A stretch of DNA of 27,360 nucleotides, from the IMG/VR virus record IMGVR_UViG_2695420569_000030; one strand, given 5' to 3'. The position numbers and the translations under genes are program-made. The notes under the pieces were generated by a model, which saw only the letters and a list, made by a program, of their open reading frames with translations, was not told where the DNA came from and made no database searches. Shown here in pieces: positions 1 to 16,211 of this stretch (its first letter is position 1; every line of letters begins with the position of its first letter). The DNA is from a virus (Duplodnaviria > Heunggongvirae > Uroviricota > Caudoviricetes).

Positions 1-1053
1 TTACGGGGTAATGCCAACCGCTGCCGCCACTTTGTCGCCACTTGGCAGCGTTGCCAGAGGATTGAAACGGAGCGCCGTTTCCAGATGATCCGGTGCCAGA
101 TGTGCGTAACGCATAGTCATTTTTATATCGTGGTGTCCGAGAATTTTTTGTAAGGCCAGAATGTTTCCACCCGACATCATGAAGTGCGCCGCAAACGTAT
201 GGCGCAGAACGTGTGTGAGTTGACCGCGAGGGAGTACGATAGACGTTTTTTCCATCACGGATAAAAATTGAAAATAGCAGTCTGTGAAGAAATTGAACCC
301 ATCAAGCGCCATGATCTCTTCGTAAAGCTCTTTACTGATAGGGATGCTTCTGTTTTTCTTCCCCTTCGTTCTGACAAAGGTAATTCGGTATTTGGTCACC
401 TGTGAGCGGGTAAGATTTACGGCTTCACGCCAGCGTGCGCCTGTGCTTAAGCATATCTTAACTACCAGTGCCAGAATTGGGTCCTGACGTTTGCAATCAG
501 CCAGCAATTCAACAATCTGCTCATGGGTAAGCCATGCCATCTCTTTTTCTGCGATGGTGAATTTTCGCATGTTCTCCAGTGGGTTCGGATACGACCATTC
601 GCCCAGACGGGATAGTTCGCTAAAAACACTACTTAGATAGCTTTGCTCCAGGTTAATGGTGACCGGGCTTGCTCCTTTCTTCCATTTCTCGCTGAAGTAG
701 ATCTCGCCTGTCAGGCGTTTATCTCGATAGTGGGCAAACATTTTAGAGGTGAGATCGGTTGCAAGAGGATTGCCCAGAGCGTCAACCATCAACAGCAATT
801 TGTCATAGACATGCTGCCCAGCTGTCAGAGATTTACCATGTAGTTTGAACCATAGCTCAACCACGTCTTTCAGTGTTCGACGATCCACTGATTCACCCAG
901 CCAGGGCTTTGCTTCGGTTTCTTCCATCGTGTGGCGCTCAAAAGCCAGTGCTTCGCCTTTGGTGACGAATTGTTTACGCACACGACGCCCACTTCGTCCG
1001 GCGGGGTAACATTCGCAAAGCCATTTCCCAGTGGTGAGTTTTCGTACTGCCAT
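1..1053 (-). CDS. int: Phage integrase (tyrosine recombinase, P2/186 family)
   Basis: Minus-strand ORF ending with TAA at 1-3. Start moved in-frame to ATG at 1053 (MAVRKLTTGKW...), matching the N-terminal region of P2-type integrases as I recall them. C-terminal catalytic region contains ...HVLRHTFAAHFMMSGGNILALQKILGHHDIKMTMRYAHL (R, H-x-x-R and Y of tyrosine recombinases). Confidence 0.9.
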   Translation of the reverse strand: MAVRKLTTGKWLCECYPAGRSGRRVRKQFVTKGEALAFERHTMEETEAKPWLGESVDRRTLKDVVELWFKLHGKSLTAGQHVYDKLLLMVDALGNPLATDLTSKMFAHYRDKRLTGEIYFSEKWKKGASPVTINLEQSYLSSVFSELSRLGEWSYPNPLENMRKFTIAEKEMAWLTHEQIVELLADCKRQDPILALVVKICLSTGARWREAVNLTRSQVTKYRITFVRTKGKKNRSIPISKELYEEIMALDGFNFFTDCYFQFLSVMEKTSIVLPRGQLTHVLRHTFAAHFMMSGGNILALQKILGHHDIKMTMRYAHLAPDHLETALRFNPLATLPSGDKVAAAVGITP

Positions 1054-1241
1054 AAAAAATGCCCTCCAGTAGAGAGCATTTTCACTGTATGTATAACCAG
1101 TGTCAATGTATGAAATCCTACGACCATACATCTCACTGAAGCCATAATTAAGTTGGCTATTCTTTTTGCTATGTGAGCATGTAACTTTTGCGGTTAACCT
1201 GCGGCTCATTTTTATTTTAGACGCAGATATAAAAGCAAAAG

Positions 1242-1433
1242 TTATCGTGAGTTTTTAGTACAGATTTTTTTGGATTTACTAATAGTTCCATCATTGCAAA
1301 CGAATTTGCCATCTGAGGTACAGTGAGAAACACCTCCCTTTTTCCCTGAGCAGGGATAATTTCTAGCATAGGTAGTTAGTGGGTTTAATAACAAAGAACA
1401 TGACAAAACCACAAAAAATACCTTACCAAGCAT
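1242..1433 (-). CDS. Hypothetical small protein with predicted signal peptide, Cys-rich mature part
   Basis: 63-aa ORF between repressor and integrase on the same strand. Strong RBS (GGGAGGAAA) about 5 nt before the ATG. Hydrophobic N-terminus [23 protein letters not shown], then a lysine- and cysteine-containing tail. No homolog recognised. Confidence 0.4.
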
Positions 1434-1448
1434 AGTTTCCTCCCGGTA

Positions 1449-2018
1449 CTATTTAACATACTTGACTGTTAAACTTATAATTTTACCAATTATTTCAATG
1501 TCTTCTATCTTGCATTCGAAGGCTCTGTTTCCACCCTCGACGAAGATTCTTCCACCGGGTAAACGAGTAATGTCACGGATAGTTATTTCGCCATCAATAC
1601 TTATTACCCATTTACCATCACGTATATCATCAAATTCTTTATCACAAATAAATTCAGAATTGTTATCTGTGATGACAAAAGGTTTTTTAAACGTAGAGGG
1701 TAGAAATCCCTTATCAAAAATATAAAAACCGTCTTTCTGCAATGCTCCATCAGACAATAAATATTTTTCTACTTCTATAGTATTTGTATTTGCTGATGCT
1801 TGCTTTGAACCATGCCCTGTTGTTAGCCAATTAAGCGAGGTGCCCGTTTCAAGGGCGCACTGGATTACCCAATCTGCTGGAAAAATATCACGCATATAGC
1901 GCGTTGCCATGGTGCTCTTAGAAACACCTAAATGATCACATAGAGCCTGACGGGTACCGAACCCATATGCTTCAACTAAACGTTCTATGGCTTTCTTACC
2001 GCCGCTATTGAAATCCAC
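1449..2018 (-). CDS. cI: CI-type immunity repressor (phage 186 CI-like)
   Basis: Recalled 186 CI features are present: EAYGF, CALETG...L.WL.TG, W.ISIDGEI.IR.IT.LPG and GG..FEC.I.DI. The track ORF runs to a GTG at 2105; I prefer the in-frame GTG at 2018, which follows a GGAGG RBS and gives about 189 aa (186 CI is about 192 aa). The start is uncertain and 1449..2105 is the alternative. Confidence 0.7.
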   Translation of the reverse strand: MDFNSGGKKAIERLVEAYGFGTRQALCDHLGVSKSTMATRYMRDIFPADWVIQCALETGTSLNWLTTGHGSKQASANTNTIEVEKYLLSDGALQKDGFYIFDKGFLPSTFKKPFVITDNNSEFICDKEFDDIRDGKWVISIDGEITIRDITRLPGGRIFVEGGNRAFECKIEDIEIIGKIISLTVKYVK

Positions 2019-2163
2019 AAGTCCTCCAAAGAAATCCAAAATTCGTTGACAGATTCCAAAAGCGATCTTAAAGTTGAACCAGAAGTGTTCTTTTGGAGCC
2101 TTCACTACTAATCACGACAAACAACGGCTCGCCACAAGCCATATCTAGAAGGAATGTTGCCTT

Positions 2164-2367
2164 ATGACACCTAACATTTCAATTACTCTGAATACACCAC
2201 ATGTCACAATCGAACGTTATAGCGAACTGACTGGCCTTTCTATTGATACGATTAACGACATGTTGGCTGATGGCCGACTACCTCGTCATCGTCTTCGTAA
2301 AGACAAAAAACGTGAAAAGGTAATGATTAACATGGCTGCTCTGACTGTTGATGCTTTGTCTGCTTAA
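2164..2367 (+). CDS. Apl/Cox-like small DNA-binding excision and switch regulator
   Basis: 67-aa basic ORF transcribed divergently from the repressor, at the position of apl (186) or cox (P2). HTH-like segment [22 protein letters not shown]. Confidence 0.5.
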
Positions 2368-2431
2368 TAGACGTCTATTTTCGCAATAAGACGCTGAGTT
2401 CGATTTTGCGATAAGTTCGGAGTTGAAAACC

Positions 2432-2941
2432 ATGTTTGATTACCAAGTTTCCAAACATCCACATTTTGATGAAGCCTGTCGTGCATTCACACTGCGCCAC
2501 AATCTGGTGCAACTGGCAGAACGTGCGGGCATGAATGTGCAGATTCTGCGGAACAAGCTGAACCCAGCTCAACCTCATTTATTAACCGCACCAGAAATCT
2601 GGCTGCTTACCGATCTGACTGAAGATTCAACGTTGGTAGATGGTTTTCTGGCACAGATTCATTGTCTGCCATGTGTACCGATTAATGAGGTAGCAAAAGA
2701 GAAACTGCCGCATTACGTCATGAGCGCAACTGCAGAGATCGGGCGTGTTGCAGCAGGTGCGGTATCTGGTGATGTAAAAACTAGTGCCGGTCGTCGTGAT
2801 GCTATCAGCAGCATTAACTCTGTAACACGACTGATGGCGCTGGCTGCTGTTTCATTGCAGGCCCGTTTACAGGCTAATCCTGCGATGGCGAGTGCAGTTG
2901 ATACCGTGACTGGCCTCGGTGCTTCATTCGGTTTGCTGTGA
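2432..2941 (+). CDS. cII: CII-like lysogeny-establishment regulator (186 CII family)
   Basis: 169 aa from the ATG at 2432, in-frame inside the track ORF that begins at a TTG at 2423. GGAG lies upstream. Position directly after apl and the length match 186 cII. Confidence 0.6.
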
Positions 2942-2948
2942 GGTGCTT

Positions 2949-3245
2949 ATGCTGACGAAAGAACCATCATTTGCATCGCTGCTGGTAAAACAAAGCCCGG
3001 CAATGCACTACGGTCACGGCTGGATCACGGGTGAGGATGGAAAACGCTGGCATCCATGTCATTCACAAGATGAATTGCTGTCTGAATTGACCACGAGGAA
3101 ACGGAGAAAGTCCAAATGTATGCGGCAGAAAGTGAAGTGGTTTATCAGTTTCGTTACAGAGGGGAGAGTTATTCAGTACCTGAAGATGATTTGCTCTGTT
3201 GCTATCCGTCATTGTCGGGCGATGGCAGTTACTTTTTCACGTTAA
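2949..3245 (+). CDS. Hypothetical early protein (uncertain; overlaps the next ORF)
   Basis: ATG at 2949 preceded by GAGGTG. The N-terminal about 57 aa looks protein-like; the distal part overlapping 3116-3245 has odd composition. Possibly mis-framed. Confidence 0.3.
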   Translation: MLTKEPSFASLLVKQSPAMHYGHGWITGEDGKRWHPCHSQDELLSELTTRKRRKSKCMRQKVKWFISFVTEGRVIQYLKMICSVAIRHCRAMAVTFSR

Positions 3246-4232: not shown

Positions 4233-5086
4233 GCACCATCCTGAAATGGGCGGGAAATAAAACCGCCATTATGCCAGAACTGAAAAAATACCTTCCTGCT
4301 GGCCCGCGACTGGTTGAACCTTTCGCGGGTTCCTGTGCTGTGATGATGGAAACGGATTATCCCAGCTATCTGGTTGCGGATATTAATCCTGATTTAATCA
4401 ACCTCTATAAAAAGGTTTCCGCTGATTGTGAATCGTTTATATCTCGCGCCAGAGTTTTATTTGAGATCGCAAACAGGGAGGTGGCTTATTACAACATAAG
4501 GCAGGAGTTTAACTGCTCAACTGAAATTACTGATTTCATGAAAGCGGTATATTTCCTGTATCTTAATCGTCACGGTTACCGTGGTTTATGTCGCTATAAC
4601 AAGAGCGGGCATTTCAACATCCCCTACGGTAATTATAAAAATCCGTATTTCCCTGAAAAAGAACTTCGCACATTTGCAGAAAAAGCCCAGCGAGCAACGT
4701 TTATCTGCGCCAGCTTTGATGAAACGCTGGCGATGTTGAAGGCGGGAGATGTGGTGTATTGCGATCCGCCGTATGACGGTACGTTTTCCGGCTATCACAC
4801 TGATGGTTTCACTGAAGATGACCAGTATCACCTGGCATCCGTTCTTGAACATCGGTCATCAGAAGGACATCCAGTCATTGTTTCTAACAGTGACACATCC
4901 CTGATCCGTTCGCTGTATCGCAATTTTACTCACCACTATATCAAGGTAAAACGCAGCATCGGTGTGGCAGCTGGCGAGGGTAAATCAGCAACAGAAATCA
5001 TTGCTGTTTCCGGGCCGCGCTGCTGGATGGGATTTGATTATTCGCGTGGCGTGGATAGTTCTGCCGTGTACGGAGTACGTGCATGA
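4229..5086 (+). CDS. dam: DNA adenine methyltransferase (Dam-like N6-adenine MTase)
   Basis: In-frame ATG at 4229 after GGAGG. SAM-binding motif (FAGSCAV) and catalytic DPPY motif (VYCDPPYDG). ATGA overlaps with both neighbours. Confidence 0.85.
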
Positions 5087-7497
5087 GTCATGCCGATATG
5101 AACAACTGCTGCGGCTTTAACGAGGCTGCTGCAGCATTCTCATGGAACAGCCCGAAAAAGGCCATTAACCCTTATCTGGACCCGGCGGAAGTTGCGCCGG
5201 TTTCTACGCTTTCAAACCTGATCACTCTGTACGCTGCCGATAACGAGCAGGAACAGTTGCGCCGCGAGGCACTGAGTGATCAGGTCTGGGAGCGTTATTT
5301 CTTTAATGAATCACGTGATCCTGTCCAGCGCGAAATGGAGCAGGATAAGCTCATTAGCCGGGCAAAGCTGGCGCATGAGCAGCAGCGTTTTAATTCAGAC
5401 ATGGTCATTCTGGCGGACGTCAACGCCCAGCCTTCCCATATCAGCAAGCCGCTGATGCAACGTATTGAATACTTCAGCAGCCTGGGCAAGCCAAAGGCTT
5501 ATTCCCGCTATTTACGTGAGACGATTAAGCCATGTCTGGAACGACTGGAGCATGTACGCGACAGTCAGCTATCTGCATCTTTTCGCTTTATGGCAAGCCA
5601 TGAAGGGCTGGACGGCCTGCTGATCCTGCCTGAAATGAGTCAGGATCAGGTGAAACGCCTGTCCACCCTGGTAGCTGCGCATATGAGTATGTGCCTTGAT
5701 GCAGCTTGTGGTGATTTGTATGCCACCGATGACGTTAAGCCAGAAGAAATCCGCAAGACATGGGAAAAGGTGGCAGCGGAAACCCTGCGTCTGGATGTCA
5801 TCCCACCTGCGTTTGAGCAACTCCGTCGGAAAAGAAACCGCCGTAAACCCGTGCCCTATGAACTCATTCCGGGTTCGTTGGCGCGTATGTTGTGTGCCGA
5901 CTGGTGGTATCGGAAATTATGGAAGATGCGTTGTGAATGGCGGGAAGAGCAGTTGCGTGCTGTCTGCCTGGTCAGCAAAAAAGCATCCCCCTATGTCAGC
6001 TATGAAGCCGTGATGCATAAACGTGAGCAGCGCCGTAAGTCGCTGGAGTTTTTCCGTTCTCATGAACTGGTGAACGAAGACGGCGACACGCTGGATATGG
6101 AAGATGTGGTAAACGCCAGCAGCAGCAACCCGGCGCATCGCCGCAATGAGATGATGGCCTGTGTTAAAGGTCTGGAGCTTATCGCGGAAATGCGCAGTGA
6201 CTGCGCCGTTTTCTACACTATCACCTGTCCGTCGCGTTTCCATTCCACGCTCAATAACGGCAGACCCAACCCGACCTGGACAAACTCGACGGTAAGACAA
6301 AGCAGCGACTATCTGGTCGGCATGTTTGCTGCATTTCGTAAGGCGATGCACAAAGCCGGATTGCGCTGGTATGGCGTGCGGGTGGCTGAGCCGCATCATG
6401 ACGGTACAGTTCACTGGCACCTGTTGTGTTTTATGCGCAAAAAAGACCGCCGCGCCATCACTGCATTACTGCGTAAGTTTGCCATCCGTGAAGACCGCGA
6501 GGAGCTGGGCAATAACACTGGGCCGCGCTTTAAGTCTGAGTTGATTAACCCGCGCAAAGGAACGCCGACAAGCTACATCGCGAAATATATCAGTAAGAAC
6601 ATTGACGGGCGTGGTCTGGCTGGCGAGATCAGCAAGGAAACGGGTAAATCTCTGCGTGATAACGCTGAATACGTTAATGTCTGGGCGTCTCTGCATCGTG
6701 TTCAGCAATTCCGCTTCTTTGGCATTCCGGGGCGTCAGGCTTACCGTGAACTGCGATTGCTGGCTGGTCAGGCGGCAAGGCAACAGGGTGACAAAAAAGC
6801 AGGTGCTCCGGTACTGGATAACCCGCGCCTTGATGCCATTCTGGCTGCTGCTGATGCTGGCTGTTTTGCCACCTACATTATGAAGCAGGGCGGCGTGTTG
6901 GTTCCCCGCAAATATCACTTGATCAGAACCGCTTATGAAATCAACGAAGAGCCGACAGCCTATGGCGATCACGGCATTCGTATTTATGGCATCTGGTCAC
7001 CCATTGCAGAGGGCAAGATCTGCACTCATGCAGTGAAGTGGAAAATGGTTCGTAAGGCCGTTGACGTTCAGGAGGCGGCAGCCGACCAGGGCGCTTGCGC
7101 CCCTTGGACTCGTGGCAATAACTGTCCCCTTGCTGAAAATTTGTACCAACAAGGGAAAGACAAATCAGCTGATGGAGATACCAGAACTGATATCACCCGT
7201 ATGGATGACAAGGAGTTGCACGATTACCTGCACAGTATGAGCAAAAAAGAGCGCCGGGAACTGGCAGCAAGGTTACGCCTGGTGAAACCGAAACGGCGTA
7301 AAGACTACAAACAGCGAATTACAGATCATCAGCGACAGCAGCTCGTGTATGAACTGAAGTCCAGGGGATTTGATGGCAGCGAGAAAGAGGTCGATTTACT
7401 CCTTCGCGGCGGCAGTATTCCGTCAGGAGCAGGCCTGCGTATCTTCTATCGGAACCAGCGTTTGCAGGAAGATGATAAGTGGCGGAACCTGTATTAA
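5083..7497 (+). CDS. A: Replication initiation endonuclease (P2 gpA-type rolling-circle initiator)
   Basis: 804 aa, the size class of P2 A. HUH-type metal-binding motif (HWHLLCF) and downstream tyrosines. Located after the early regulators, as in P2/186. Confidence 0.9.
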
Positions 7498-7589
7498 TTA
7501 CGCGGGTTAACAATTCGTGCTCTTAATAATACCAGGCATTTCTGGCTGATGAACGTAAAAAAACGTTTTACATCAGTAAGATTATTATA

Positions 7590-7609
7590 TACTGTAAATA
7601 TAAACAGTG
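7590..7609 (+). promoter_or_regulatory. LexA operator (SOS box) upstream of the tum-like operon
   Basis: TACTGTAAATATAAACAGTG is a CTG-N10-CAG motif with an AT-rich spacer, close to the LexA consensus, about 40 bp upstream of the ATG at 7650. A second degenerate box (GTG-N10-CAG) abuts it. Confidence 0.6.
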
Positions 7610-7649
7610 GTTATGTATACAGTATCGCTTTGGTGTCATAGGAGGAAAG

Positions 7650-7838
7650 ATGCAGGACTATTTTTTGGAGTCTTTGAAGCTCCAGCGCATTGATTTTTTT
7701 CTTAAGCTTGTAGCGGCTAGTGAGTGTAGTGATGAAGAGAAGGGGCTGGCTCTGCAGTGGGTTTCTGAATTGACTGATGAACTCATGGCAAAAATCAGAA
7801 CCCACGAATACAACCGCTCAATGGATGTCATCAGTTGA
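7650..7838 (+). CDS. Small protein, possible N-terminal part of a Tum-like antirepressor
   Basis: 62-aa ORF with strong RBS (GGAGGAAAG), directly downstream of the LexA box and upstream of the DinI-like ORF. Confidence 0.5.
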   Translation: MQDYFLESLKLQRIDFFLKLVAASECSDEEKGLALQWVSELTDELMAKIRTHEYNRSMDVIS

Positions 7839-7848
7839 GGTGACTTTT

Positions 7849-8082
7849 ATGCGCATTGAAATAATGATCGATAAAGAGCAGAAGATTAGCCAGTCTACCC
7901 TGGACGCCCTTGAATCCGAGCTTTACCGCAATCTGCGCCCCCTGTATCCCAAAACGGTAATTCGTATCCGCAAAGGTAGCTCTAACGGTGTGGAACTGAC
8001 CGGACTGCAACTGGATGAAGAAAGAAAACAAGTGATGAAAATTATGCAGAAAGTGTGGGAAGACGACAGCTGGCTGCATTAA
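7849..8082 (+). CDS. DinI-family protein
   Basis: 77 aa (MRIEIMIDK...DALESEL...VWEDDSWL) that aligns by eye along its whole length with E. coli DinI (MRIEVTIAK...DALAGEL...TWESADDW). RBS GAGGTG. Confidence 0.8.
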   Translation: MRIEIMIDKEQKISQSTLDALESELYRNLRPLYPKTVIRIRKGSSNGVELTGLQLDEERKQVMKIMQKVWEDDSWLH

Positions 8083-8193
8083 GAAACGTTGCCTCCAGGA
8101 GGATTCATTCTGATGGGGGCTAGTTTGGGCAACGAGTGAAACGAGGCGTAAGGTGGGCGGGCATTTTGATAAGTGATCGTCCGCTTTGTGCTA

Positions 8194-8213
8194 GAAGCGG
8201 TCGTTACCGCTTC
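8194..8213. terminator. Stem-loop between convergent genes (possible terminator)
   Basis: GAAGCGG-tcgtta-CCGCTTC, a perfect 7-bp stem. An upstream CCGCTT copy could form an alternative pairing. The U-tract is weak. Confidence 0.25.
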
Positions 8214-8226
8214 AGCACTTTGTTAA

Positions 8227-10086
8227 TTAGTGAGGGCTGGTTATTACGTAGTCGCTCTGGTCATCCTCTCCCAGCCTCTCAGGTATTAAATCGTTGAAGG
8301 AAATAGTATTACTCTTAGGTTTTTCTTCAATTGGAAGTTCAGCTACCCTTAATTTGAGCGGCATGGGGCAGACGATACCACTAAAAATACAGGTTCCTGT
8401 AGATAGCGTTGGAATCGACTCTTCAGTCAGTCGATCTATATATGATACTGATTTTTCAATTGCGTACAGATCATTCTGATTAATAAGGCGATGAATAAAA
8501 TAATTGTGTGCTTGGGATATGATTGTCGACGATATATCATTAGGGCGTTGACTGGAAATTGTGATAAAAACTCCAAATTTTCTCCCCTCCTTTATGATTT
8601 CCTCAAAAGTTTCCAGACGATAATCTCTCCAACTTTCCGTTTCCCGAAAAGAAGTATTAGACAAAATATTGTGGGCTTCATCTATAATGATGTGCAGTGT
8701 AGATTTCTCTGTAGACATTTTCTTCATATTGTAAGCCCACTTGGCTATCAAAAGAGGAAGCGTTTTTTTCATGGTTATATTAACCATATTTAGATTCACA
8801 ACCGTGAAATTATGTTCACCCCAAAAGTCAGACTGTCCGGAAGTATCAAATATTTTGGCTATATCTTTACGGTTAGCACTCATTCTATTTATAACTGGTG
8901 AAATATGTTCAGGGTTAGACTTGTTAGATAAATATTCCTGTATTAACTGTAAGTACATAAAGTCCAACAGTTCTTCAATCATATCAGTTTTAAATAAAAA
9001 ATTGCTTGCAAGACTGAATAGATAGGAGCGCTCAGTATCAGCTTCTGTATTGAAAATACTACCACCCCTCAATTTCCATTTATATGCAGTTGAATGATAC
9101 TCAAGATCAGATATAAGTTCTGGGTCATCTTTGAAAATTGGGCTAAGAAACTGATTTATAGTATCGCATTTGGGTTTGTCGCTACTAAAGAGATTTTGTC
9201 TGACTTTTTTCTTCAGGATATTGCGCATAAACTCAAGAGGATTATCAGCAGTCATCACTTTCTTGCGAAACTCAAGAACTCTCTTCAGGAAAGGTTTCTG
9301 TGTTTTGTCTGTTGCATCGGTTAGAACTGAGAGCATATCATGCTCAAGTAGAACCTCTCTGGGTAGAGGAAGTTTGTCACCATTTGCATGGTGCGTGTTG
9401 AGATTATAAACCGTCTTCTCGTCAGTAATACAGCGTGGGGCAGTATATTCTCCATTAAAGTCGAATAGAATAAATTTGCATCTTTCACTAAAGTGGTTGC
9501 CGAGAATATGTTTAACTTGGGCAATACCTGCTTTGTATAGCGCGGCTAGGGTATTTGACTTTCCGCTGCCTGTATTACCGAAAATGGCAATGTGGGAATT
9601 AATAAGACCATTGATTGGTAGTGCAATTTCAATATCTTCAAGATCTGTACGAGTAAACCTCATTACAGTTTCGTCTGCATTAGCTATCTGATGAACCGTT
9701 TGTATCATCTCTTCAGTTACCACGAAGACTTCATTGCCGATGAGAGGTAGTTCACGCGAACCACCAATGAAGCAACCAGTACGATCAATGTAACCCGTAA
9801 GAGTAGAGGTCAGGTATCGCCGATATCGCCAGGCATCACTGCCGCTCCCAGCGAGATGTTTTTCCTCAATGATTCGTTCCGCTTCAACCTTGCCGATCAG
9901 GCTCATGAAACCTTTTTTGATCTCAATGAAGCTACCCACTGATACATTTCTTAGAACTTTTCCCTGATAAAACAAGTCACTGAGATTTTTGTTTTTATCG
10001 ACCAAAATTGTCACAGCGCGTCCAGAAACCTCACAGACTTCGCCTATACGGAGCACCGCTTCCTCTTCAGTAAAATGCCTGCTCAT
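8227..10086 (-). CDS. HerA-like P-loop ATPase (partner of SIR2)
   Basis: Walker A GNTGSGKSNT and Walker B HIIIDEAH. Start taken at the ATG that forms an ATGA overlap with the SIR2 stop; the track ORF extends 7 codons further. Confidence 0.8.
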   Translation of the reverse strand: MSRHFTEEEAVLRIGEVCEVSGRAVTILVDKNKNLSDLFYQGKVLRNVSVGSFIEIKKGFMSLIGKVEAERIIEEKHLAGSGSDAWRYRRYLTSTLTGYIDRTGCFIGGSRELPLIGNEVFVVTEEMIQTVHQIANADETVMRFTRTDLEDIEIALPINGLINSHIAIFGNTGSGKSNTLAALYKAGIAQVKHILGNHFSERCKFILFDFNGEYTAPRCITDEKTVYNLNTHHANGDKLPLPREVLLEHDMLSVLTDATDKTQKPFLKRVLEFRKKVMTADNPLEFMRNILKKKVRQNLFSSDKPKCDTINQFLSPIFKDDPELISDLEYHSTAYKWKLRGGSIFNTEADTERSYLFSLASNFLFKTDMIEELLDFMYLQLIQEYLSNKSNPEHISPVINRMSANRKDIAKIFDTSGQSDFWGEHNFTVVNLNMVNITMKKTLPLLIAKWAYNMKKMSTEKSTLHIIIDEAHNILSNTSFRETESWRDYRLETFEEIIKEGRKFGVFITISSQRPNDISSTIISQAHNYFIHRLINQNDLYAIEKSVSYIDRLTEESIPTLSTGTCIFSGIVCPMPLKLRVAELPIEEKPKSNTISFNDLIPERLGEDDQSDYVITSPH

Positions 10087-11126
10087 CTCGAGCCTCCCAG
10101 ATAGCACGTGATAATGTTATTCATTACCGGAAAATCAACATTTCTTCCCGGCCGATAAATAATCTCTACGTTTGAGTAATCCCGAAATTTCTCCATAAAG
10201 CCGTTAACACTGGCCTCATCGAAAGCAAAGATCAGTAGCTTCAGGGTGGCGTTGCGCAGGGCTTTTTTAGTTATCGTTTCAATGTGCTCATCAGCAAACG
10301 AGAACCCAAAGACAATTAGTAAAGTTGCTTCTTTATCAAGCTCGTTGGAATAGGTTCTCAGTAAATCATAATAAACGTTCTGTAGTAGAGTCTCTTTAAA
10401 CTTCTCCTTACGTGGAAGAATAAGTGCATGAGCAAGTACCCATCCTTTCATTTCGGCTAGGGTGGGAAAGTCAAGCGGCTTAATATCTGCAATACGATAA
10501 ATGATTTTCCCTTTAGAATGCTGCCAAGAGAGCGAACCATGAAGTTTTATAAGGTTAACAGTAGGAAGCTCAACTTTATAATTATACAGATTTCCGGTTG
10601 CACTTACAGAATGATTAAAGCTACCCGCATCAAATTCCGCATCTCCCAAAATACTTGCTCTTCTATTGAATCCATCATTAAAAAGAATATTGTTATTACG
10701 TGTGGCAGCTTCTTCGATGAATAAATCATAATTAGTTGTAAAAACGTTAATACGCCTCGGAAGTAGGCCAGTTCGGCGGCGGGTCAGTATCTTTTCCAGT
10801 GAAGACATAAATGCATCATAATTTGCACGGGTACATTCCAAATCGGTGATCACCTGAGGTGCGAAGGGGGTGCCGTAGCCGCGCTTCAACATGCATTCAT
10901 GAGGTAGCCAAACATCTGACAAAAAGTCAGCTGCCATCCTTAAGTATTCATCTTCCTGTTCATCATTAATAAGCTGCTGAAGATCCGTTTCGATTGTCCC
11001 CAGTACTTTAATCGCTGGGAGGGATGCACCTGATCCGATGAGAAAGTTAATGTTAGCTGACTGAAATATCCGCTCTAAGTAGTCTCGGTCACTATCGTTA
11101 CCGTAGTATGCGCGCTTGACTGCCAT
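10083..11126 (-). CDS. SIR2-like domain protein (defence-type, predicted NADase)
   Basis: Motifs GSGAS, VFTTNYDLFIEEA and IKLHGS, characteristic of defence-associated SIR2 domains. ATG at 11126 with AGGA RBS; the track start at 11141 is a TTG. Confidence 0.75.
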   Translation of the reverse strand: MAVKRAYYGNDSDRDYLERIFQSANINFLIGSGASLPAIKVLGTIETDLQQLINDEQEDEYLRMAADFLSDVWLPHECMLKRGYGTPFAPQVITDLECTRANYDAFMSSLEKILTRRRTGLLPRRINVFTTNYDLFIEEAATRNNNILFNDGFNRRASILGDAEFDAGSFNHSVSATGNLYNYKVELPTVNLIKLHGSLSWQHSKGKIIYRIADIKPLDFPTLAEMKGWVLAHALILPRKEKFKETLLQNVYYDLLRTYSNELDKEATLLIVFGFSFADEHIETITKKALRNATLKLLIFAFDEASVNGFMEKFRDYSNVEIIYRPGRNVDFPVMNNIITCYLGGSR

Positions 11127-11550
11127 CTTATCCTTCCACAAAACATTGGATTAGTCTGTAATTTATTTAATCTTAACGCCGAGCTCAATACTTTAACATC
11201 ACTTCTTCTGGCGATTGCTATGAGCCCTTCTTGATAAAAAGTTCGATCGGGAAACTGATCCTTTATGCCACAAGTTTTCTAGCTATCCTCAAAAAATTGG
11301 TGTTAAAACTGTGCCAACAAAGTTGCAAGGTTCGCTTCTCGCTCACAGCGAACTTTCATCTTTGTAAACCCGTATGATTCGCTTTTCAGCAGTCATTCAG
11401 ATACGGATTTACGCTTCCCTTGGCAGCGCATGACTATGACGCATGAGATCGCATGATCGTTTGAGGATCGTTTTTGCTGAAGTCAGCCAGAACTGGCGTG
11501 CTTTTGCTTATGTCATGCAGGTGCATGAAAACCACTACATAAAGCGGGCA

Positions 11551-11569
11551 GGCGTGGCGGGGATACGAG
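11551..11569. other. Candidate cos (cohesive-end) site
   Basis: GGCGTGGCGGGGA followed by GCGCGCGCT resembles the 19-nt cohesive ends of P2/186 as I recall them (GGCG[A/T]GGCGGGGAAAGCA...). It lies in the intergenic region between the two cargo operons. Recalled from memory, not verified. Confidence 0.3.
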
Positions 11570-11721
11570 CGCGCGCTAAGTCATATAAGAGTTATATATT
11601 GATTTGATTGCTGGACATGCATACAGTATCGCTCTATCATCTAATAAATCTTAGAGTATTTGACAATGTTTGGATAAAATGGAACCTAACTTATTCATAA
11701 TCCGCTAAACAGGGATGTCAG

Positions 11722-12636
11722 ATGCCATACCAATTGGTAGAGCTTAGCCCCGTAGCTAACGATCTTGAACAGTTAGGAACCAAAGAGAAGTTTTGGTTCT
11801 ATTTCTCCGATGACACTGTAAATTTGCAGTTGTTTAAGTACTCTAGGCCAGGTACTGGCGAGCATTGGTCTGAAAAGTGTGCTGCTGAGTTATGTCATTT
11901 GCTTAACATTCCACATGCTAGCTATGATTTGGCGCGATACAATGGTCGATTCGGTGTGGTGACTCAGAATATCATTCCATCTGGTTTCCGGATGGTAATG
12001 GGAAATGAAGTGCTTCACAGTTCGACATTCGATTATCCTGGGTCTTTACAAGCCGGGGAAAAGCCGGTAAGGGTCAGAGAACACACTGTCACAAGGGTAT
12101 TGGGTTGTTTAGATAGGGAATCTATCAAGCCTCCTCCGAGTGTATATGATCTAACCGGGCTAAATGCAGCAGATGTATTTTGTGGATATTTGATGCTCGA
12201 TGCACTTGTGAGTAATCAAGATCGCCATCATGAAAATTGGGCGATCATGCTTAACAATGAAACTGGTGAGCAGTTTTTGTGTCCAACATACGATCATGCC
12301 GCTAGTTTAGGAAGGGAGATGTTAGATGATGAGCGTAACGAACGGCTTAATACTAAAGATAAAAATCGACAAATCCCATGTTTTGTAAGAAAAGCTCGCT
12401 CTGAGCTATTCAAAGCAAAAACTGATAAAAAGCCCTTGCTGACCGTTGAAGCATTTCAACATGCAGTTGAAGGGAGAGTTGCCGCTCGCGACCATTGGTT
12501 AGGTAAGTTGAGCGTTTTAACAGAAGATTCCATTACAGATGTGTTTAACCAAGTGCCTTCATCGTGTATATCCGACAGTGCACGTAGATTTGCAACGTTA
12601 ATGGTAATGGAAAATCGCAGAAGGTTACTAGAATGA
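11722..12636 (+). CDS. HipA-family serine/threonine kinase (short, HipT-like core)
   Basis: Catalytic-loop motif SNQDRHHENW (HipA D-x-H-x-x-N), downstream CPTYDHA (HipA activation-region PFYD) and a Gly-rich-loop-like GTKEKF. 304 aa, shorter than canonical HipA. Confidence 0.75.
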   Translation: MPYQLVELSPVANDLEQLGTKEKFWFYFSDDTVNLQLFKYSRPGTGEHWSEKCAAELCHLLNIPHASYDLARYNGRFGVVTQNIIPSGFRMVMGNEVLHSSTFDYPGSLQAGEKPVRVREHTVTRVLGCLDRESIKPPPSVYDLTGLNAADVFCGYLMLDALVSNQDRHHENWAIMLNNETGEQFLCPTYDHAASLGREMLDDERNERLNTKDKNRQIPCFVRKARSELFKAKTDKKPLLTVEAFQHAVEGRVAARDHWLGKLSVLTEDSITDVFNQVPSSCISDSARRFATLMVMENRRRLLE

Positions 12637-13373
12637 CTAATACAAACTCCGTTTACGTCGCATGGCAGGCACCAGATACCAGAGACTGGCATGTTGTTGG
12701 TAACTTGCAAGAGCGCAAATCGGGGTATGTTTTCAGGTATACCAAAGGTGCTCTCAAATCTACTAAATTTACAAAGTTTAGCGGCATGAGTGATGTTCGT
12801 GAAACTTATGTTTCGGAAGAATTGTTTCCTCTTTTTAAAAATCGCCTTTTATCACCGAGACGTCCAGAGTATCCGAGTTTCATTAAATGGCTTGGATTTG
12901 AAGAAGATAAGGTAAATCCTATCGATATTCTTGCTCGCTCGGGAGGCTTACGAAGCACTGATCAGCTGCAGATTTTCAAAAAAATTGATGTTGATTCTGA
13001 TGGTAACTTTGAGCATTTTTTCTTCTTACATGGACTTGGTTACTTAAATAGCTTAGCTAATGCTCGTGTATCTGAATTGAAACCGGGGCAAATTTTGCGT
13101 CTTTGCTTGGATCTTCAAAATGAATACGATGGGGATGCTGTTGTCGTTCGTGCAGATAAACCAGCTGAAATCGTTGGTTACTGCCCTAGGTATTTAAGTA
13201 ATGATATCAAGAAGATGTTATTGGATGATCCAAAATCAATCACTTTAACGGTCGAAAAGATTAGCGATGATGCTCCTCATAACTATCGGTTATTATGTAA
13301 ATTATCAGGAGTACTAAGCCAAGCCTGTCAATCGACGCTGATTCCTCAGGATGAGTTTGAACCTATTGAGTAA
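12633..13373 (+). CDS. HipA-N-terminal-like (HipS-like) domain fused to a HIRAN-like domain
   Basis: Start overlaps the kinase stop (ATGA). The N-terminal region (W...VGNL...F.Y, then LFPLFKNRLLSPRRP...IDILARSGGLRS) parallels the HipA N-subdomain 1. The C-terminal region (LHGLGY...LRLCLDLQNEYDGDAVVVRA...IVGYCPRYLS) matches the HIRAN signature. Confidence 0.6.
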   Translation: MTNTNSVYVAWQAPDTRDWHVVGNLQERKSGYVFRYTKGALKSTKFTKFSGMSDVRETYVSEELFPLFKNRLLSPRRPEYPSFIKWLGFEEDKVNPIDILARSGGLRSTDQLQIFKKIDVDSDGNFEHFFFLHGLGYLNSLANARVSELKPGQILRLCLDLQNEYDGDAVVVRADKPAEIVGYCPRYLSNDIKKMLLDDPKSITLTVEKISDDAPHNYRLLCKLSGVLSQACQSTLIPQDEFEPIE

Positions 13374-13379
13374 ATGAAG

Positions 13380-13406
13380 AAAAGCCACCAAACGGTGGCT
13401 TTTCTT
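13380..13406. terminator. Bidirectional rho-independent terminator
   Basis: AAAAGCCACC-aaac-GGTGGCTTTT, a perfect GC-rich stem with an A-tract on one side and a T-tract on the other, between the convergent stops at 13373 and 13408. Confidence 0.55.
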
Positions 13407-13407
13407 A

Positions 13408-14445
13408 TTATGGGACTATATCTAGCGAGTAGGTATTAAACTGTATCGCCTCCTTGCCAAGCCAATCATTCATCTCCTGTAATCGCTTTTGTAGTGGCAT
13501 TAGCTCATTTCGGACGAATACACGGCTTGCCTTCTCCACATCCCCAAACCCCCCAACATTATTCGGCATAATCCCCATCATTTGCGGCGGTACACGATGC
13601 GCCGCCATCATGTCGTCCCGGCTTACGTTCTTGATGTTCAGAAACTCATCCTTTGCCGCCACTTCTGACAGCGGGATGATCTGAAGCCCGTCCTTTTTGC
13701 CGTTAGGCGAGTACATAAACAGGTTGCGGAAGTTGCCCGGACCTTTGGCGCTTTTCATCGCGTTGCGGAGGTTGTTCACATCCTCCTGGTTCTGAGCGGC
13801 ATCGGTCATGTACATTATGAATCCTGCATGGCTGCCATTAATATAATATTTGCGTCGGAACAGCGTGGCGGACTCGTTGAGCAGGGCTGACGGAATGGCA
13901 GAAAGATAGCCGGGCAGGCCGTAGATCTCCTGGTTGATATCGGGTTCCATCAGATGAAAGATGCTGCCTTTCGTGAACTGATACGGCTGGGTTGTCATAC
14001 CGTATTGCACAAACCAGTAGGTATCCAGGTCTAACCCGCGTCGGGTGTATTTTGCCAGCGCAGGCTCAAGGGCGATAATTTCACCGAACCGGTTCGTGCG
14101 TTTCTCCAGGTAGGCGTTACCAAATACCAGATAGTCCTGCACAAAACGTGAAAAAGCCTGCTGGCTGAGCAGCGGGTGAGGGATGTAGGTGCTGGTCAGA
14201 ATGTTGCATTTCACCGCAATCGGTGAGCTATGATGCACGGCGGCGCGGAAGGTTCGCGCCAGTCCGTCGAAACTCACTGGTGGCTCATACCAGCGGTCCA
14301 TCTGTACGCATTCCACATAGTCCAGTAATTCGCGGCGGTCCAGAACAGGAACGGGATCGCCGAAGCTGAATGCTTCGGCTGAAGTCTGGCTTTTATGCTG
14401 GATCTGATTCATCGCCGCTGCGCGGTTTTTCTTACGCTTTCCCAT
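13408..14445 (-). CDS. Q: Portal protein (P2 gpQ-like)
   Basis: 345 aa from the ATG at 14445, which overlaps the P stop by one nt. Size and position (downstream of the large terminase, next to cos) match P2 Q. Confidence 0.9.
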   Translation of the reverse strand: MGKRKKNRAAAMNQIQHKSQTSAEAFSFGDPVPVLDRRELLDYVECVQMDRWYEPPVSFDGLARTFRAAVHHSSPIAVKCNILTSTYIPHPLLSQQAFSRFVQDYLVFGNAYLEKRTNRFGEIIALEPALAKYTRRGLDLDTYWFVQYGMTTQPYQFTKGSIFHLMEPDINQEIYGLPGYLSAIPSALLNESATLFRRKYYINGSHAGFIMYMTDAAQNQEDVNNLRNAMKSAKGPGNFRNLFMYSPNGKKDGLQIIPLSEVAAKDEFLNIKNVSRDDMMAAHRVPPQMMGIMPNNVGGFGDVEKASRVFVRNELMPLQKRLQEMNDWLGKEAIQFNTYSLDIVP

Positions 14446-16211
14446 CAAAAAATCTCCACAATATTACTGGTATTGGCGGACTCGCCTTGCAGTGGTTCGT
14501 TAAACAGTGCGTGCATTGTTGCCCAGGCCAGATCGGCGTGGCTGGCTTCTTCGCTGCGGCTGGCTTCATAGGTCGGGCGGTTGCCACTGGCGGTGGTGGC
14601 GCGACGGATTGCCATAAATGACTGCGCTATGTCGGTGTGTCCGGCGTCAAACTCCAGACGGCGGTGGCTGATAATGTCGTAGGCCTTGAGTACCAGAGCG
14701 TTTTTAACGTTGGGGTTGTAGACAAACTCCCGGACGGCAGGAAAGAACGCTTTCACGTTCTCATAAACCCCGTGACCGACGCCTGTCGAGTCAATGCCGA
14801 TATAGGTCACGTTGTACTGCTCGGTCAGTTTTTTGATGGCGTCAGCCTGGGCGCGGAAGTCCATTCCGCGCCACTGGTGACGCTCAAGAATGCGGAACTT
14901 ACCGCCCGGCACGGCTGGCGGTGCCACCACCACGCACCCGGCGCTGTCGCCGTTTTGCGTACCTTTTGCCGGGTCATAACCGATCCACACTTCGCGCCAG
15001 CCAAACGGGCGCAGCGCCAGTGCATGAAAGTCGGTCCAGACTTCCCAGCTGTCCACCATGCACCCCTGCAGCTCGCTGAGCGGGAACACGGACGCGAGAT
15101 CGTCCACGAACTCACACATCAGCAGGTTCTGGTATTCATCCGGGCTGTATTCCATGCGTAACTGGTCGAGGTCGAACAAGTTGCAGCCGCCGCGCACCGC
15201 ATCTTCCACAGTGACTATCTGGCGGTACTGCCCGTCTGCGCACAGCAGGCCGGGGGCCAGATTGCTGTGGGACAGGTCGATGTCCACCTTGTCGGCTTTG
15301 TTGCGTCCACGGTTGAACAGCGCACCGGACCAGAACGGATAAGCACTGTGGGTCAGGCTGGATGGCGTGGAAAAATAGGTTTGTCGCCATTTTTTGTGAA
15401 TAGCCATACCGGAAGCCACTTTGCGCAGCTCCTGGAATTTCGGTATCCAGAAATATTCATCCAGATACAGGTTACCGTGATAACTCTGGGCTGTGCGGGC
15501 ATTGGTGCCGAGGAAGTAAAGCGTGGCCCCGTTAGGAAGCACCATCGGATCGCCTTTCAGCTCCACCTCCACTTCTTTGGCGAAGTCGATGATGTACTGC
15601 TTAAAGACGTGGGCCTGTGCCTTACTGGCGGAAAGGAAAATCTGGTTACGTCCGGTCAGCAGGGCGTCAATCAGGGCTTCACGGGCAAAGTAAAAGGTCG
15701 CGCCGATCTGGCGTGACTTCAGCAGGTTGCGGATGCGGTTGGTTTTTCCGGCTTCCCACCAGTGGCGCTGGTAGTTGAACATGGAGGAGTGGAAGATTTC
15801 TTCCAGCTTCTCAATTTGTTCATCGGTGAAAACGTTCTTTTCCGGCTGACGGCGCGGGCCTTTGTTGCGGTTGGCGACGTTAGGGTTTAAGTCGGCTTCG
15901 TTACCGCCATTGTTAAACTTGCCGATGCGCGCGTGGCGCTCCGACTGGCGCGCCAGCAGGTCAATTTCTTTGAAATCTTTCCCTTCTTTGTGCTCCTTCA
16001 TAATGAGCTGGCAGTAGCGTGCGGCGGTGGTGAGCTGCATCTGATCCAGCGGCCCATAGTCACCCCACTTGTCGCGTTTTTTCCAGCTGTGAACGGTTGC
16101 AACTTTCTCGCCCAGCATTTCAGCAATGCGGGCTACGCGGTATCCCTGAAAGTACAGCAGCATGGCCTGCCGACGGGGATCGAGATCTGCGGGTGTCAGT
16201 GTGGTGTTCAT
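14445..16211 (-). CDS. P: Terminase large (ATPase) subunit (P2 gpP-like)
   Basis: 588 aa, divergent from the scaffold gene as in the P2 P-Q/O-N-M-L arrangement. Confidence 0.9.
   Translation of the reverse strand: MNTTLTPADLDPRRQAMLLYFQGYRVARIAEMLGEKVATVHSWKKRDKWGDYGPLDQMQLTTAARYCQLIMKEHKEGKDFKEIDLLARQSERHARIGKFNNGGNEADLNPNVANRNKGPRRQPEKNVFTDEQIEKLEEIFHSSMFNYQRHWWEAGKTNRIRNLLKSRQIGATFYFAREALIDALLTGRNQIFLSASKAQAHVFKQYIIDFAKEVEVELKGDPMVLPNGATLYFLGTNARTAQSYHGNLYLDEYFWIPKFQELRKVASGMAIHKKWRQTYFSTPSSLTHSAYPFWSGALFNRGRNKADKVDIDLSHSNLAPGLLCADGQYRQIVTVEDAVRGGCNLFDLDQLRMEYSPDEYQNLLMCEFVDDLASVFPLSELQGCMVDSWEVWTDFHALALRPFGWREVWIGYDPAKGTQNGDSAGCVVVAPPAVPGGKFRILERHQWRGMDFRAQADAIKKLTEQYNVTYIGIDSTGVGHGVYENVKAFFPAVREFVYNPNVKNALVLKAYDIISHRRLEFDAGHTDIAQSFMAIRRATTASGNRPTYEASRSEEASHADLAWATMHALFNEPLQGESANTSNIVEIF

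Follow-up and report, generated by a model that had tools for sequence, protein, structure and literature searches.

The window analysed here is the whole stretch of 27,360 nucleotides (nt) in the IMG/VR virus record IMGVR_UViG_2695420569_000030 (Caudoviricetes), and all positions refer to it. It is a 186-type, Tum-like, SOS-inducible P2-family prophage of Escherichia coli, and the subject of the analysis is the interval between its replication initiator gene A and its portal gene Q. Gene A stops at 7497 and the stop codon of Q occupies 13408-13410, so that the interval 7498-13407, delimited in an earlier reading of this DNA (below, the sequence-only reading), is the exact A-Q intergenic span of 5,910 bp. 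Candidate defence genes were found on both sides of a predicted cohesive-end site (cos), a SIR2-HerA pair on the A side and a kinase/HIRAN pair on the Q side (Table 1). The interval is very probably a cos-proximal accessory-gene hotspot in which a packaging signal of 152 bp lies between two separate slots.

The lysogeny module of the window is of the 186 type, with an integrase, a CI repressor containing the CI_C domain, CII/CP76, Fil, a Dam methylase and the replication protein A. The synteny around the A-Q interval is common to P2, 186 and more than 150 relatives, and the terminase and portal genes of the window are intact. The G+C content of the island is 0.34-0.43, compared to 0.51-0.60 in the backbone. 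Over the island, the window is 99.6% identical to prophages of three complete E. coli genomes, e.g. that of strain 2c3, where the matching prophage adjoins rcdA/ybjJ. Strains 89-3156 and GmM062 also carry this prophage. The island encodes no integrase or transposase of its own, and neither direct nor inverted repeats of the kind expected from transposition or site-specific insertion were found to flank it in a repeat search. No known RNA was found by an Rfam scan of positions 7300-13700, the best candidate being BSnc120 over the terminator (32 bits against a cut-off of 114). The gene inventory of the sequence-only reading (a tum-like pair, SIR2-HerA on the minus strand, a region free of open reading frames (ORFs), a kinase module on the plus strand and a terminator) was reproduced item by item at the same positions.

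Table 1. Features of the A-Q interval and its flanks, with positions in the window
Feature	Position	Strand	Evidence or remark
Replication initiator A, left backbone flank	5083..7497	+	Pfam Phage_GPA 1e-125; 96-99% identity in close relatives
SOS operator region of the orf62/DinI operon	7592..7622	+	Perfect LexA box CTGTAAATATAAACAG at 7592-7607; weaker abutting box GTGGTTATGTATACAG at 7607-7622
orf62, small conserved phage protein, first gene of the SOS operon	7650..7838	+	phrog_698 4e-38
DinI-like protein	7849..8082	+	Pfam DinI 1e-22; 41% identity to 186 Tum residues 71-145
Left variable slot, A side of cos	8093..11424		SIR2-HerA cassette and its upstream region 11127-11424
HerA-type ATPase	8227..10086	-	PADLOC HerA PDLC04097 7e-267, full length; Pfam DUF87 4e-19
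SIR2-family protein, predicted NADase effector	10083..11126	-	PADLOC SIR2 PDLC04080 6e-211; Pfam SIR2_2 1e-12
Conserved cos block, 152 bp	11425..11576	+	126-bp left arm, 19-nt cohesive end, CGCGCGC
Predicted 19-nt cohesive end	11551..11569	+	GGCGTGGCGGGGATACGAG; alignable with the cos annotated in 186 and P2; same 19-mer as the 'putative cos' of SEN8
cos alignment row, 186			left ...CCCATAAAGTGGGCA; cohesive end GGCGTGGCGGGGAAAGCAT; right TGCGCGC
cos alignment row, window			left ...CTACATAAAGCGGGCA; cohesive end GGCGTGGCGGGGATACGAG; right CGCGCGC
Right variable slot, Q side of cos	11577..~13480		Kinase/HIRAN cassette; the exchanged unit reaches into the 3' end of Q
LexA-type candidate operator upstream of the kinase gene	11611..11640	+	CTGGACATGCATACAG at 11611-11626, overlapping the promoter-like TGGACA-17-TATCAT
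Short HipA-like Ser/Thr kinase (HipI-type), 304 aa	11722..12636	+	PADLOC PDC-M03A 2e-122
HIRAN-domain partner (HipN-type), 246 aa	12633..13373	+	Pfam HIRAN 1e-13, residues 127-228; PADLOC PDC-M03B 3e-93
Bidirectional intrinsic terminator between the convergent HIRAN and Q genes	13377..13406		-21.0/-20.4 kcal/mol, z -8.3/-7.6
Portal protein Q, right backbone flank	13408..14448	-	Pfam Phage_portal 5e-19

The SIR2 and HerA genes of the left slot overlap by 4 nt, and the start codon of the SIR2 gene agrees with the RefSeq annotation. The assignment of this pair in the sequence-only reading is borne out by the PADLOC models (Table 1). The SIR2 protein matches the PDB entries 8yhx (3e-21) and 8j4u (2e-11), and the HerA protein is related to the HerA chains of the solved SIR2-HerA complexes 8wiv, 8yho and 8j4u. 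Both proteins are distant homologues of these chains, and the pair is a divergent subtype of SIR2-HerA, covered by the PADLOC subtype models.

In the right slot, the HIRAN gene overlaps the end of the kinase gene by 4 nt. The kinase module proposed from the sequence is recognized by the PADLOC candidate models PDC-M03A and PDC-M03B. The match of the kinase to the Pfam HipA_C domain (4e-4, 20.7 bits) is under the cut-off of 30.5 bits. A profile of 19 kinase homologues weakly matches the HipA-like kinase CtkA, 3AKJ (E 0.007), with NQDRHHENW aligned to its catalytic loop. The residues D167, R168, H169, N172 and D191 and the motif DRHHENW are invariant in the 19 homologues, and the catalytic loop is intact. 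Single-sequence PDB searches with the kinase and the HIRAN protein produced no match. Residues 1-120 of the HIRAN protein match no Pfam family and, by sequence profile, no PDB entry. A Vibrio homologue of this protein is labelled Couple_hipA/HIRAN in supplementary file 7 of Rousset et al.

The cassette is closed by a terminator that is predicted to act in both directions, since the hairpin is stable on both strands and has U-runs on both. A scan with a consensus terminator model missed this Q-proximal hairpin, and it was detected by direct folding. It is not common to loci with other cargo; in this comparison, the terminator is a part of the right cassette and not of the backbone. The bidirectional terminator abutting Q that had been suggested by the sequence-only reading therefore stands as a structure, but it is a cassette element, and the exchanged unit extends beyond it into Q.

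The comparison covered four related phage genomes, six E. coli prophages and 160 loci fetched through the portal protein; the locus sample was drawn from IMG/VR and from one genome for each species. The cohesive ends annotated in 186 (GGCGTGGCGGGGAAAGCAT) and P2 (GGCGAGGCGGGGAAAGCAC), both of 19 nt, align to GGCGTGGCGGGGATACGAG of the window, and the circularised junctions of both phages align with positions 11425-11576. The predicted 5' cohesive end of the window matches that of 186 in 13 of 19 bases. Its two flanks, ATAAAGYGGGCA and GCGCGC, are kept and form part of a conserved core of approximately 55 bp. The identity to the Salmonella phage SEN8 is complete (19/19): the record of this isolated phage begins with the same 19-mer, labelled 'putative cos site', and ends at the base equivalent to window position 11550. 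No second cos-like site was observed within the window. The 152-bp block occurs at the equivalent position in 138 of the 160 related loci, with 77-97% identity and sharp edges at 11425-11428 and 11575-11577. In these alignments the match is far above chance, and positions 11551-11569, with inferred cut positions, are well supported by homology as cos. The sequence-only reading had placed cos at about 11551; this position aligns to the annotated 186 and P2 ends and coincides with the termini of the SEN8 record. The alignment to P2, 186 and related prophages yields sharp edges at 8092, 11425-11428 and 11575-11577, and a fuzzy one inside Q.

The 126-bp arm to the left of the cut (11425-11550) contains five GCATG/CATGC repeats, approximately 21-fold enriched relative to the window density and located in conserved columns. 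They may be candidate terminase recognition repeats. TGCAT-type repeats are visible by eye in the aligned cos arms of P2 and 186.

An ORF of 54 codons (11443-11607) runs across cos. Several public records label it as a hypothetical protein, and it has a match in phrog_28685. However, it was rejected as a gene: its three codon positions vary equally, and of 124 distinct sequences only 63 keep the frame open. Its annotation is probably an artefact of the conservation of cos. The block is conserved as DNA, since it has no codon periodicity. The entire stretch around cos from 11127 to 11721 (595 bp) contains no credible gene, in agreement with the ORF-free region of roughly 600 bp noted earlier.

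Relatives whose backbone DNA is 92-97% identical (up to 99% in the flanks) have entirely different genes between DinI and cos and between cos and Q. Window positions 8250-11300 are aligned by none of the 160 related loci. The distance from the DinI stop codon to cos varies from 18 to 4382 bp (88 loci); this slot is empty (about 79 bp) in 25 loci and exceeds 600 bp in 57. The distance from the end of the cos overhang to the Q stop codon is 153-3510 bp with a median of 1679 bp (138 loci). It exceeds 600 bp in 122 loci, and only 11 of the 138 are 'empty' in the manner of P2 (168 bp) and 186 (177 bp). In the four related phages, the region to the right of cos contains a retron, a Hypoth_Ymh protein or hypothetical genes. 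The largest right-slot proteins are rich in defence domains: TIR, retron reverse transcriptase, KAP NTPase, AAA_15/21, AIPR, PIN, OLD-TOPRIM, AbiC and SieB.

Clustering of the cassettes produced 58 left types and 94 right types, and 120 different pairings of them occur among 127 loci. Assortment between the two slots is nearly free. Among 5,426 complete E. coli genomes, the SIR2-HerA cassette was found in 18 and the kinase/HIRAN cassette in 21, and they occur together in three. Elsewhere in E. coli, the SIR2-HerA cassette is paired on the right with a GTP pyrophosphokinase, with ParA and RelA/SpoT as in strain 1916D18, or with a hypothetical gene. The left-hand partners of the kinase/HIRAN cassette are an ASCH protein with a restriction endonuclease, a small hypothetical gene, or nothing, as in strain SCU-106. 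The proposal of the sequence-only reading that variable cargo lies on both sides of cos agrees with these counts and with the different genes carried by near-identical relatives. Neither cargo module belongs to the conserved core of the relatives.

The boundary between the two linkage groups was located by comparing loci that share one cassette. Loci with the same left cassette and different right cassettes are 93-100% identical through the whole cos block and fall to background from 11577. In loci with the same right cassette and different left cassettes, the variable positions of the left arm are at background or only partly above it (left-arm identity 0.86 against a baseline of 0.81). The polymorphic columns at 11508-11540 track the left cassette, while 11569, 11570 and 11576 track the right one. 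Therefore the switch from left to right linkage occurs within 11541-11568, that is, in the cohesive end.

The right edge is of a different kind. Homology resumes inside Q at 13416-13559, with modes at 13457, 13462 and 13487, and this edge is fuzzy. The last 26-31 residues or so of Q (13408 to approximately 13500) are 98% identical in loci with the same right cargo and 52% identical in loci with different cargo, whereas the body of Q is 98-99% identical whatever the right cargo. By this comparison, the C-terminal tail of the portal protein is co-inherited with the right cassette. The portal gene does flank the island, as the sequence-only reading had it, but the true edge lies some 50-150 nt inside Q and not at its stop codon. 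The hypervariable tail retains the pattern L..LN.W...I.F..Y.L. Import of the tail from a distant phage lineage together with the cassette was considered and rejected: the tails of loci with diverged kinase/HIRAN pairs are no closer to the window tail than expected. Judging from the aligned sequences, the tail simply evolves fast.

The palindrome CTGGACATGCATACAG is situated approximately 110 nt 5' of the kinase gene. The pattern CTG-N10-CAG is kept at positions -107 to -131 in 44 of 50 homologous modules, and it is the sole conserved island of the diverged upstream DNA. In modules of 66-75% protein identity, the operator is the textbook LexA consensus CTGTATATAAATACAG. Some modules with CTGTATATAAATACAG adjoin neither cos nor a portal gene, and some are found outside P2-like phages. 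This conservation suggests that the kinase/HIRAN module is probably repressed by LexA and induced by the SOS response, like the Tum-like operon of the prophage. As far as family knowledge goes, the kinase would be a HipA-type toxin restrained by its HIRAN partner and freed when DNA ends appear, and SIR2-HerA would deplete NAD+ on infection, leading to abortive infection. By family assignment, both cassettes are candidate anti-phage defence cargo.

These features fit the following scenario. The terminase cut at cos would put the left cassette at the right end of the virion DNA and the right cassette at the left end. When two related phages share a cell, a single homologous crossover anywhere in the common backbone of approximately 28 kb would, once the DNA is packaged from cos to cos or its cohesive ends re-anneal, produce a new pair of left and right cassettes joined exactly at cos. 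A swap of a single cassette would take one exchange at or near cos and another in the flanking backbone, that is, in DinI/A on the left or in the body of Q on the right. Swaps through the body of Q would therefore leave fuzzy breakpoints in this gene and drag the divergent tail along with the right cassette. New cargo may first enter the slots by illegitimate joins under functional constraint, as suggested by the sharp edges at cos+7 and DinI stop codon +10. Exchange driven by the cos ends was already a matter of speculation in the Discussion of Rousset et al. 2022 (PMC9122126).

The full reading makes cos the pivot of two-slot shuffling: the left cassette would move with the 126-bp arm and the right one with the terminator and portal tail, co-infection or co-induction would re-deal the pairs at the terminase cut, and the LexA-repressed kinase/HIRAN module would be switched on at prophage induction. 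We propose it tentatively and with some doubt. Several points weigh against the explanation of the island as a whole, the exchange scenario included. Recombination inside the invariant cos core would give the same picture as the cos-end route, which the data fit: the junction interval of 28 bp is nearly invariant, and exchange of terminase-cut ends and ordinary homologous recombination look alike in it. P2 recombines poorly in crosses. The locus sample contains related sequences, so that the pair counts are not counts of independent events. The cos assignment in the window is by homology only, and the cos of SEN8 is itself annotated as 'putative'. The evidence for LexA control of the kinase module is a conserved operator-like palindrome. 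As to the cargo, neither NCBIfam equivalog threshold was reached by the left pair (SIR2_antiphage, 99.8 bits against 500; HerA_antiphage, 137.5 bits against 800). A literature search found no experimental study of the hipIN/PDC-M03 module, the pair being listed as a PADLOC candidate.

One possibility is that the slots are reassorted by RecA-type homologous recombination in the cos core of approximately 55-65 bp, between prophage or circular DNA molecules and with no part played by terminase or linear ends. This seems rather unlikely. The interval 11541-11568 does fall inside the most conserved stretch of the block, with 96-100% identity between relatives, and the slightly raised left-arm identity in loci with the same right and different left cassettes (0.86 against 0.81) suggests that some exchanges occur further left. 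However, no more than 28 bp are informative, a length close to the lower limit established for efficient homologous exchange, and a single backbone exchange with cos-to-cos packaging, which needs no crossover at cos, predicts this pattern as well.

The cassettes might, on the other hand, serve the phage life cycle and not defence, the SOS-controlled kinase shutting down the host and SIR2-HerA acting in phage DNA metabolism. We consider this improbable, as most near-identical relatives lack both cassettes and so need neither, homologues of SIR2-HerA are experimentally established defence systems with solved complexes, and the alternatives in both slots are dominated by defence domains. What speaks for it is the LexA-type operator of the kinase, which resembles that of the prophage induction operon and would switch the module on with lytic growth; besides, the hotspot is not reserved for defence, as about a quarter of P2 hotspots carry partition genes and some carry toxins (Rousset 2022, PMC9122126).

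It is most improbable that the interval is a single undivided hotspot with the cassettes as mere neighbours and the cos-like sequence a relic or a coincidence, the packaging site lying elsewhere or the phage being defective: published surveys do handle gpA-gpQ as one locus and cos is known here by homology, but the block keeps its place and sharp edges in 138 of 160 loci, is conserved as DNA without codon periodicity, can be aligned base by base to the experimentally annotated 186 and P2 ends, coincides with the beginning and end of the record of an isolated phage (SEN8), is the only such site in a window with intact terminase and portal genes, and is exactly where the linkage switches.

The tum-like pair at the left end of the interval has a different status from the cassettes. 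It is preceded by a perfect CTGT-N8-ACAG box 43 nt 5' of orf62. The orf62 gene is kept in 89-101 of the 160 related loci, and of the 105 loci whose alignment covers the end of A, 87 have conserved orf62 together with the DinI-like gene; P2 and more distant relatives lack the pair. The backbone homology runs from A through orf62 to the DinI-like gene and in most loci ends only at 8080-8092; therefore, as far as homology tells, the pair is lineage backbone and not hotspot cargo. The pair is indeed present where the sequence-only reading had seen it, but it does not belong to the cargo island. For the same reason, the backbone does not end at A on the left, as this reading had it, but continues through orf62 and DinI.

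An element of 22 nt, TGG..ATG.ATACAGTATCGCT, is common to the orf62/DinI promoter (7592-7629) and the kinase operator (11612-11633), with 19 of 22 positions shared. The spacer 8083-8230 between the convergent DinI-like and HerA genes has a strong predicted fold on the plus strand (-59 kcal/mol, z = -5). The first 100 bp or so of this spacer recur at 86-95% identity in many genomes of E. coli, among them BL21(DE3), C and W, which have no annotation there.

A second stretch of low G+C content (0.37-0.42) is found at 1000-2500, covering the integrase end and the region of the CI repressor. Gene coordinates in this stretch do not match those of the otherwise 99.6% identical 2c3 prophage, which suggests a different immunity/integration module, that is, mosaicism. 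In E. coli 2c3, a DUF2971 gene (L009 3968-4720, outside the window) lies between rcdA and the prophage integrase gene. This gene may represent cargo of the prophage end with the attachment site, which has been mentioned as a minor hotspot (PMC13586616).

The island is a further instance of a hotspot that has been surveyed in tens of thousands of genomes, and the value of the present analysis is that of a confirmatory annotation, which sets the slot edges and cos and separates backbone from cargo. The insertion points at cos+7 and DinI stop codon +10 have base-pair-sharp edges and tolerate approximately 3.5-4.4 kb each, and could be used as payload sites. Recent work describes the swapping of defence genes and leaves its mechanism open; the break in linkage at the cohesive end points to a concrete route, open to testing, by which very fast swapping could occur. 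The LexA operator, if true, would tie an uncharacterised candidate defence system, kinase/HIRAN, to the SOS response.

The orf62/DinI operon can be compared with the p95-tum operon of 186. Both lie just 3' of A, both have a LexA box in the promoter, and the DinI-like domain shares 41% identity with the C-terminal half of Tum. The counterpart of the operator region at 7592-7622 is the promoter p95, for which a putative LexA site is annotated in 186. However, 186 has a single Tum protein of 146 amino acids, whereas the window has two small genes instead, and no orf97 homologue. No alignment between orf62 and 186 Tum was obtained at E <= 100, and orf62 is not similar to the N-terminal (antirepressor) half of Tum.

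The left pair shares with the SIR2-HerA anti-phage system (8j4u/8su9, 8yhx, 8wld; Gao 2020, as cited elsewhere) the two-gene architecture, the overlap of the genes and homologous chains. Unlike that system, the pair of the window is divergent and scores under the NCBIfam cut-offs. The right pair resembles the hipIN modules of Gerdes et al. 2021 (PMC8262856), in which HipI is a short kinase and HipN consists of a HipS-like part and HIRAN: a kinase gene is followed, with a 4-nt overlap, by a gene for a partner with a C-terminal HIRAN domain. The kinase is likened to HipI by its architecture, and the HipS-like N-terminal domain of the partner is only proposed. That paper contains neither 'LexA' nor 'SOS', whereas the kinase module considered here has a conserved LexA-type operator. 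Comparable named modules are 'HIRAN-kinase' in Table S6 of Rousset et al. and the PADLOC candidate PDC-M03.

The position of the island is also known. The old/tin 'TO region' of P2, reportedly described by Odegrip in 2006, is said to be the same gpA-gpQ hotspot. In P2-like phages, the gpA-gpQ region was described as a hotspot 'adjacent to cos' (Rousset 2022, PMC9122126) and was re-surveyed in 2026 (NAR, PMC13586616). The sequence-only reading had recognized a known P2-family hotspot, and Table S5A of Rousset et al. indeed lists the window's own cargo proteins at gpA-gpQ: WP_001146828 and WP_000185757 (kinase and HIRAN), and WP_028985770 and WP_029364119 (SIR2_2 and DUF87). The window shares with this hotspot the location between the homologues of A and Q and next to cos, and the low-G+C, rapidly swapped, mostly defence cassettes. 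The finding of the island is thus real, correctly interpreted and already known.

The differences concern the structure of the locus. The published accounts examined describe one hotspot beside cos, whereas the lineage of the window has two slots with a linkage break at the cohesive end. P2 itself uses just the slot on the A side, for tin and old, and has 168 bp from cos to Q, while in the lineage of the window the Q-side slot is filled more often (more than 600 bp in 122 of 138 loci). Passages of PMC5694545 report insertions between cos and the portal gene, namely the retrons Ec67/Ec86 in a 186-related prophage (Dodd & Egan 1996) and ctx in phiCTX (Nakayama 1999). These occupy the same right-hand slot, and relatives of the window also carry retrons there, e.g. 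phage 4LV2017. However, their cargo differs from the kinase/HIRAN pair, and the exchanged unit in the lineage of the window also extends over the terminator into the 3' end of Q. The two-slot structure with its break of linkage in the cohesive end, the inheritance of the portal tail together with the right cassette and the LexA operator of the kinase are not stated in the literature examined; compared to the systems listed above, they are modest refinements and do not make a new kind of system.

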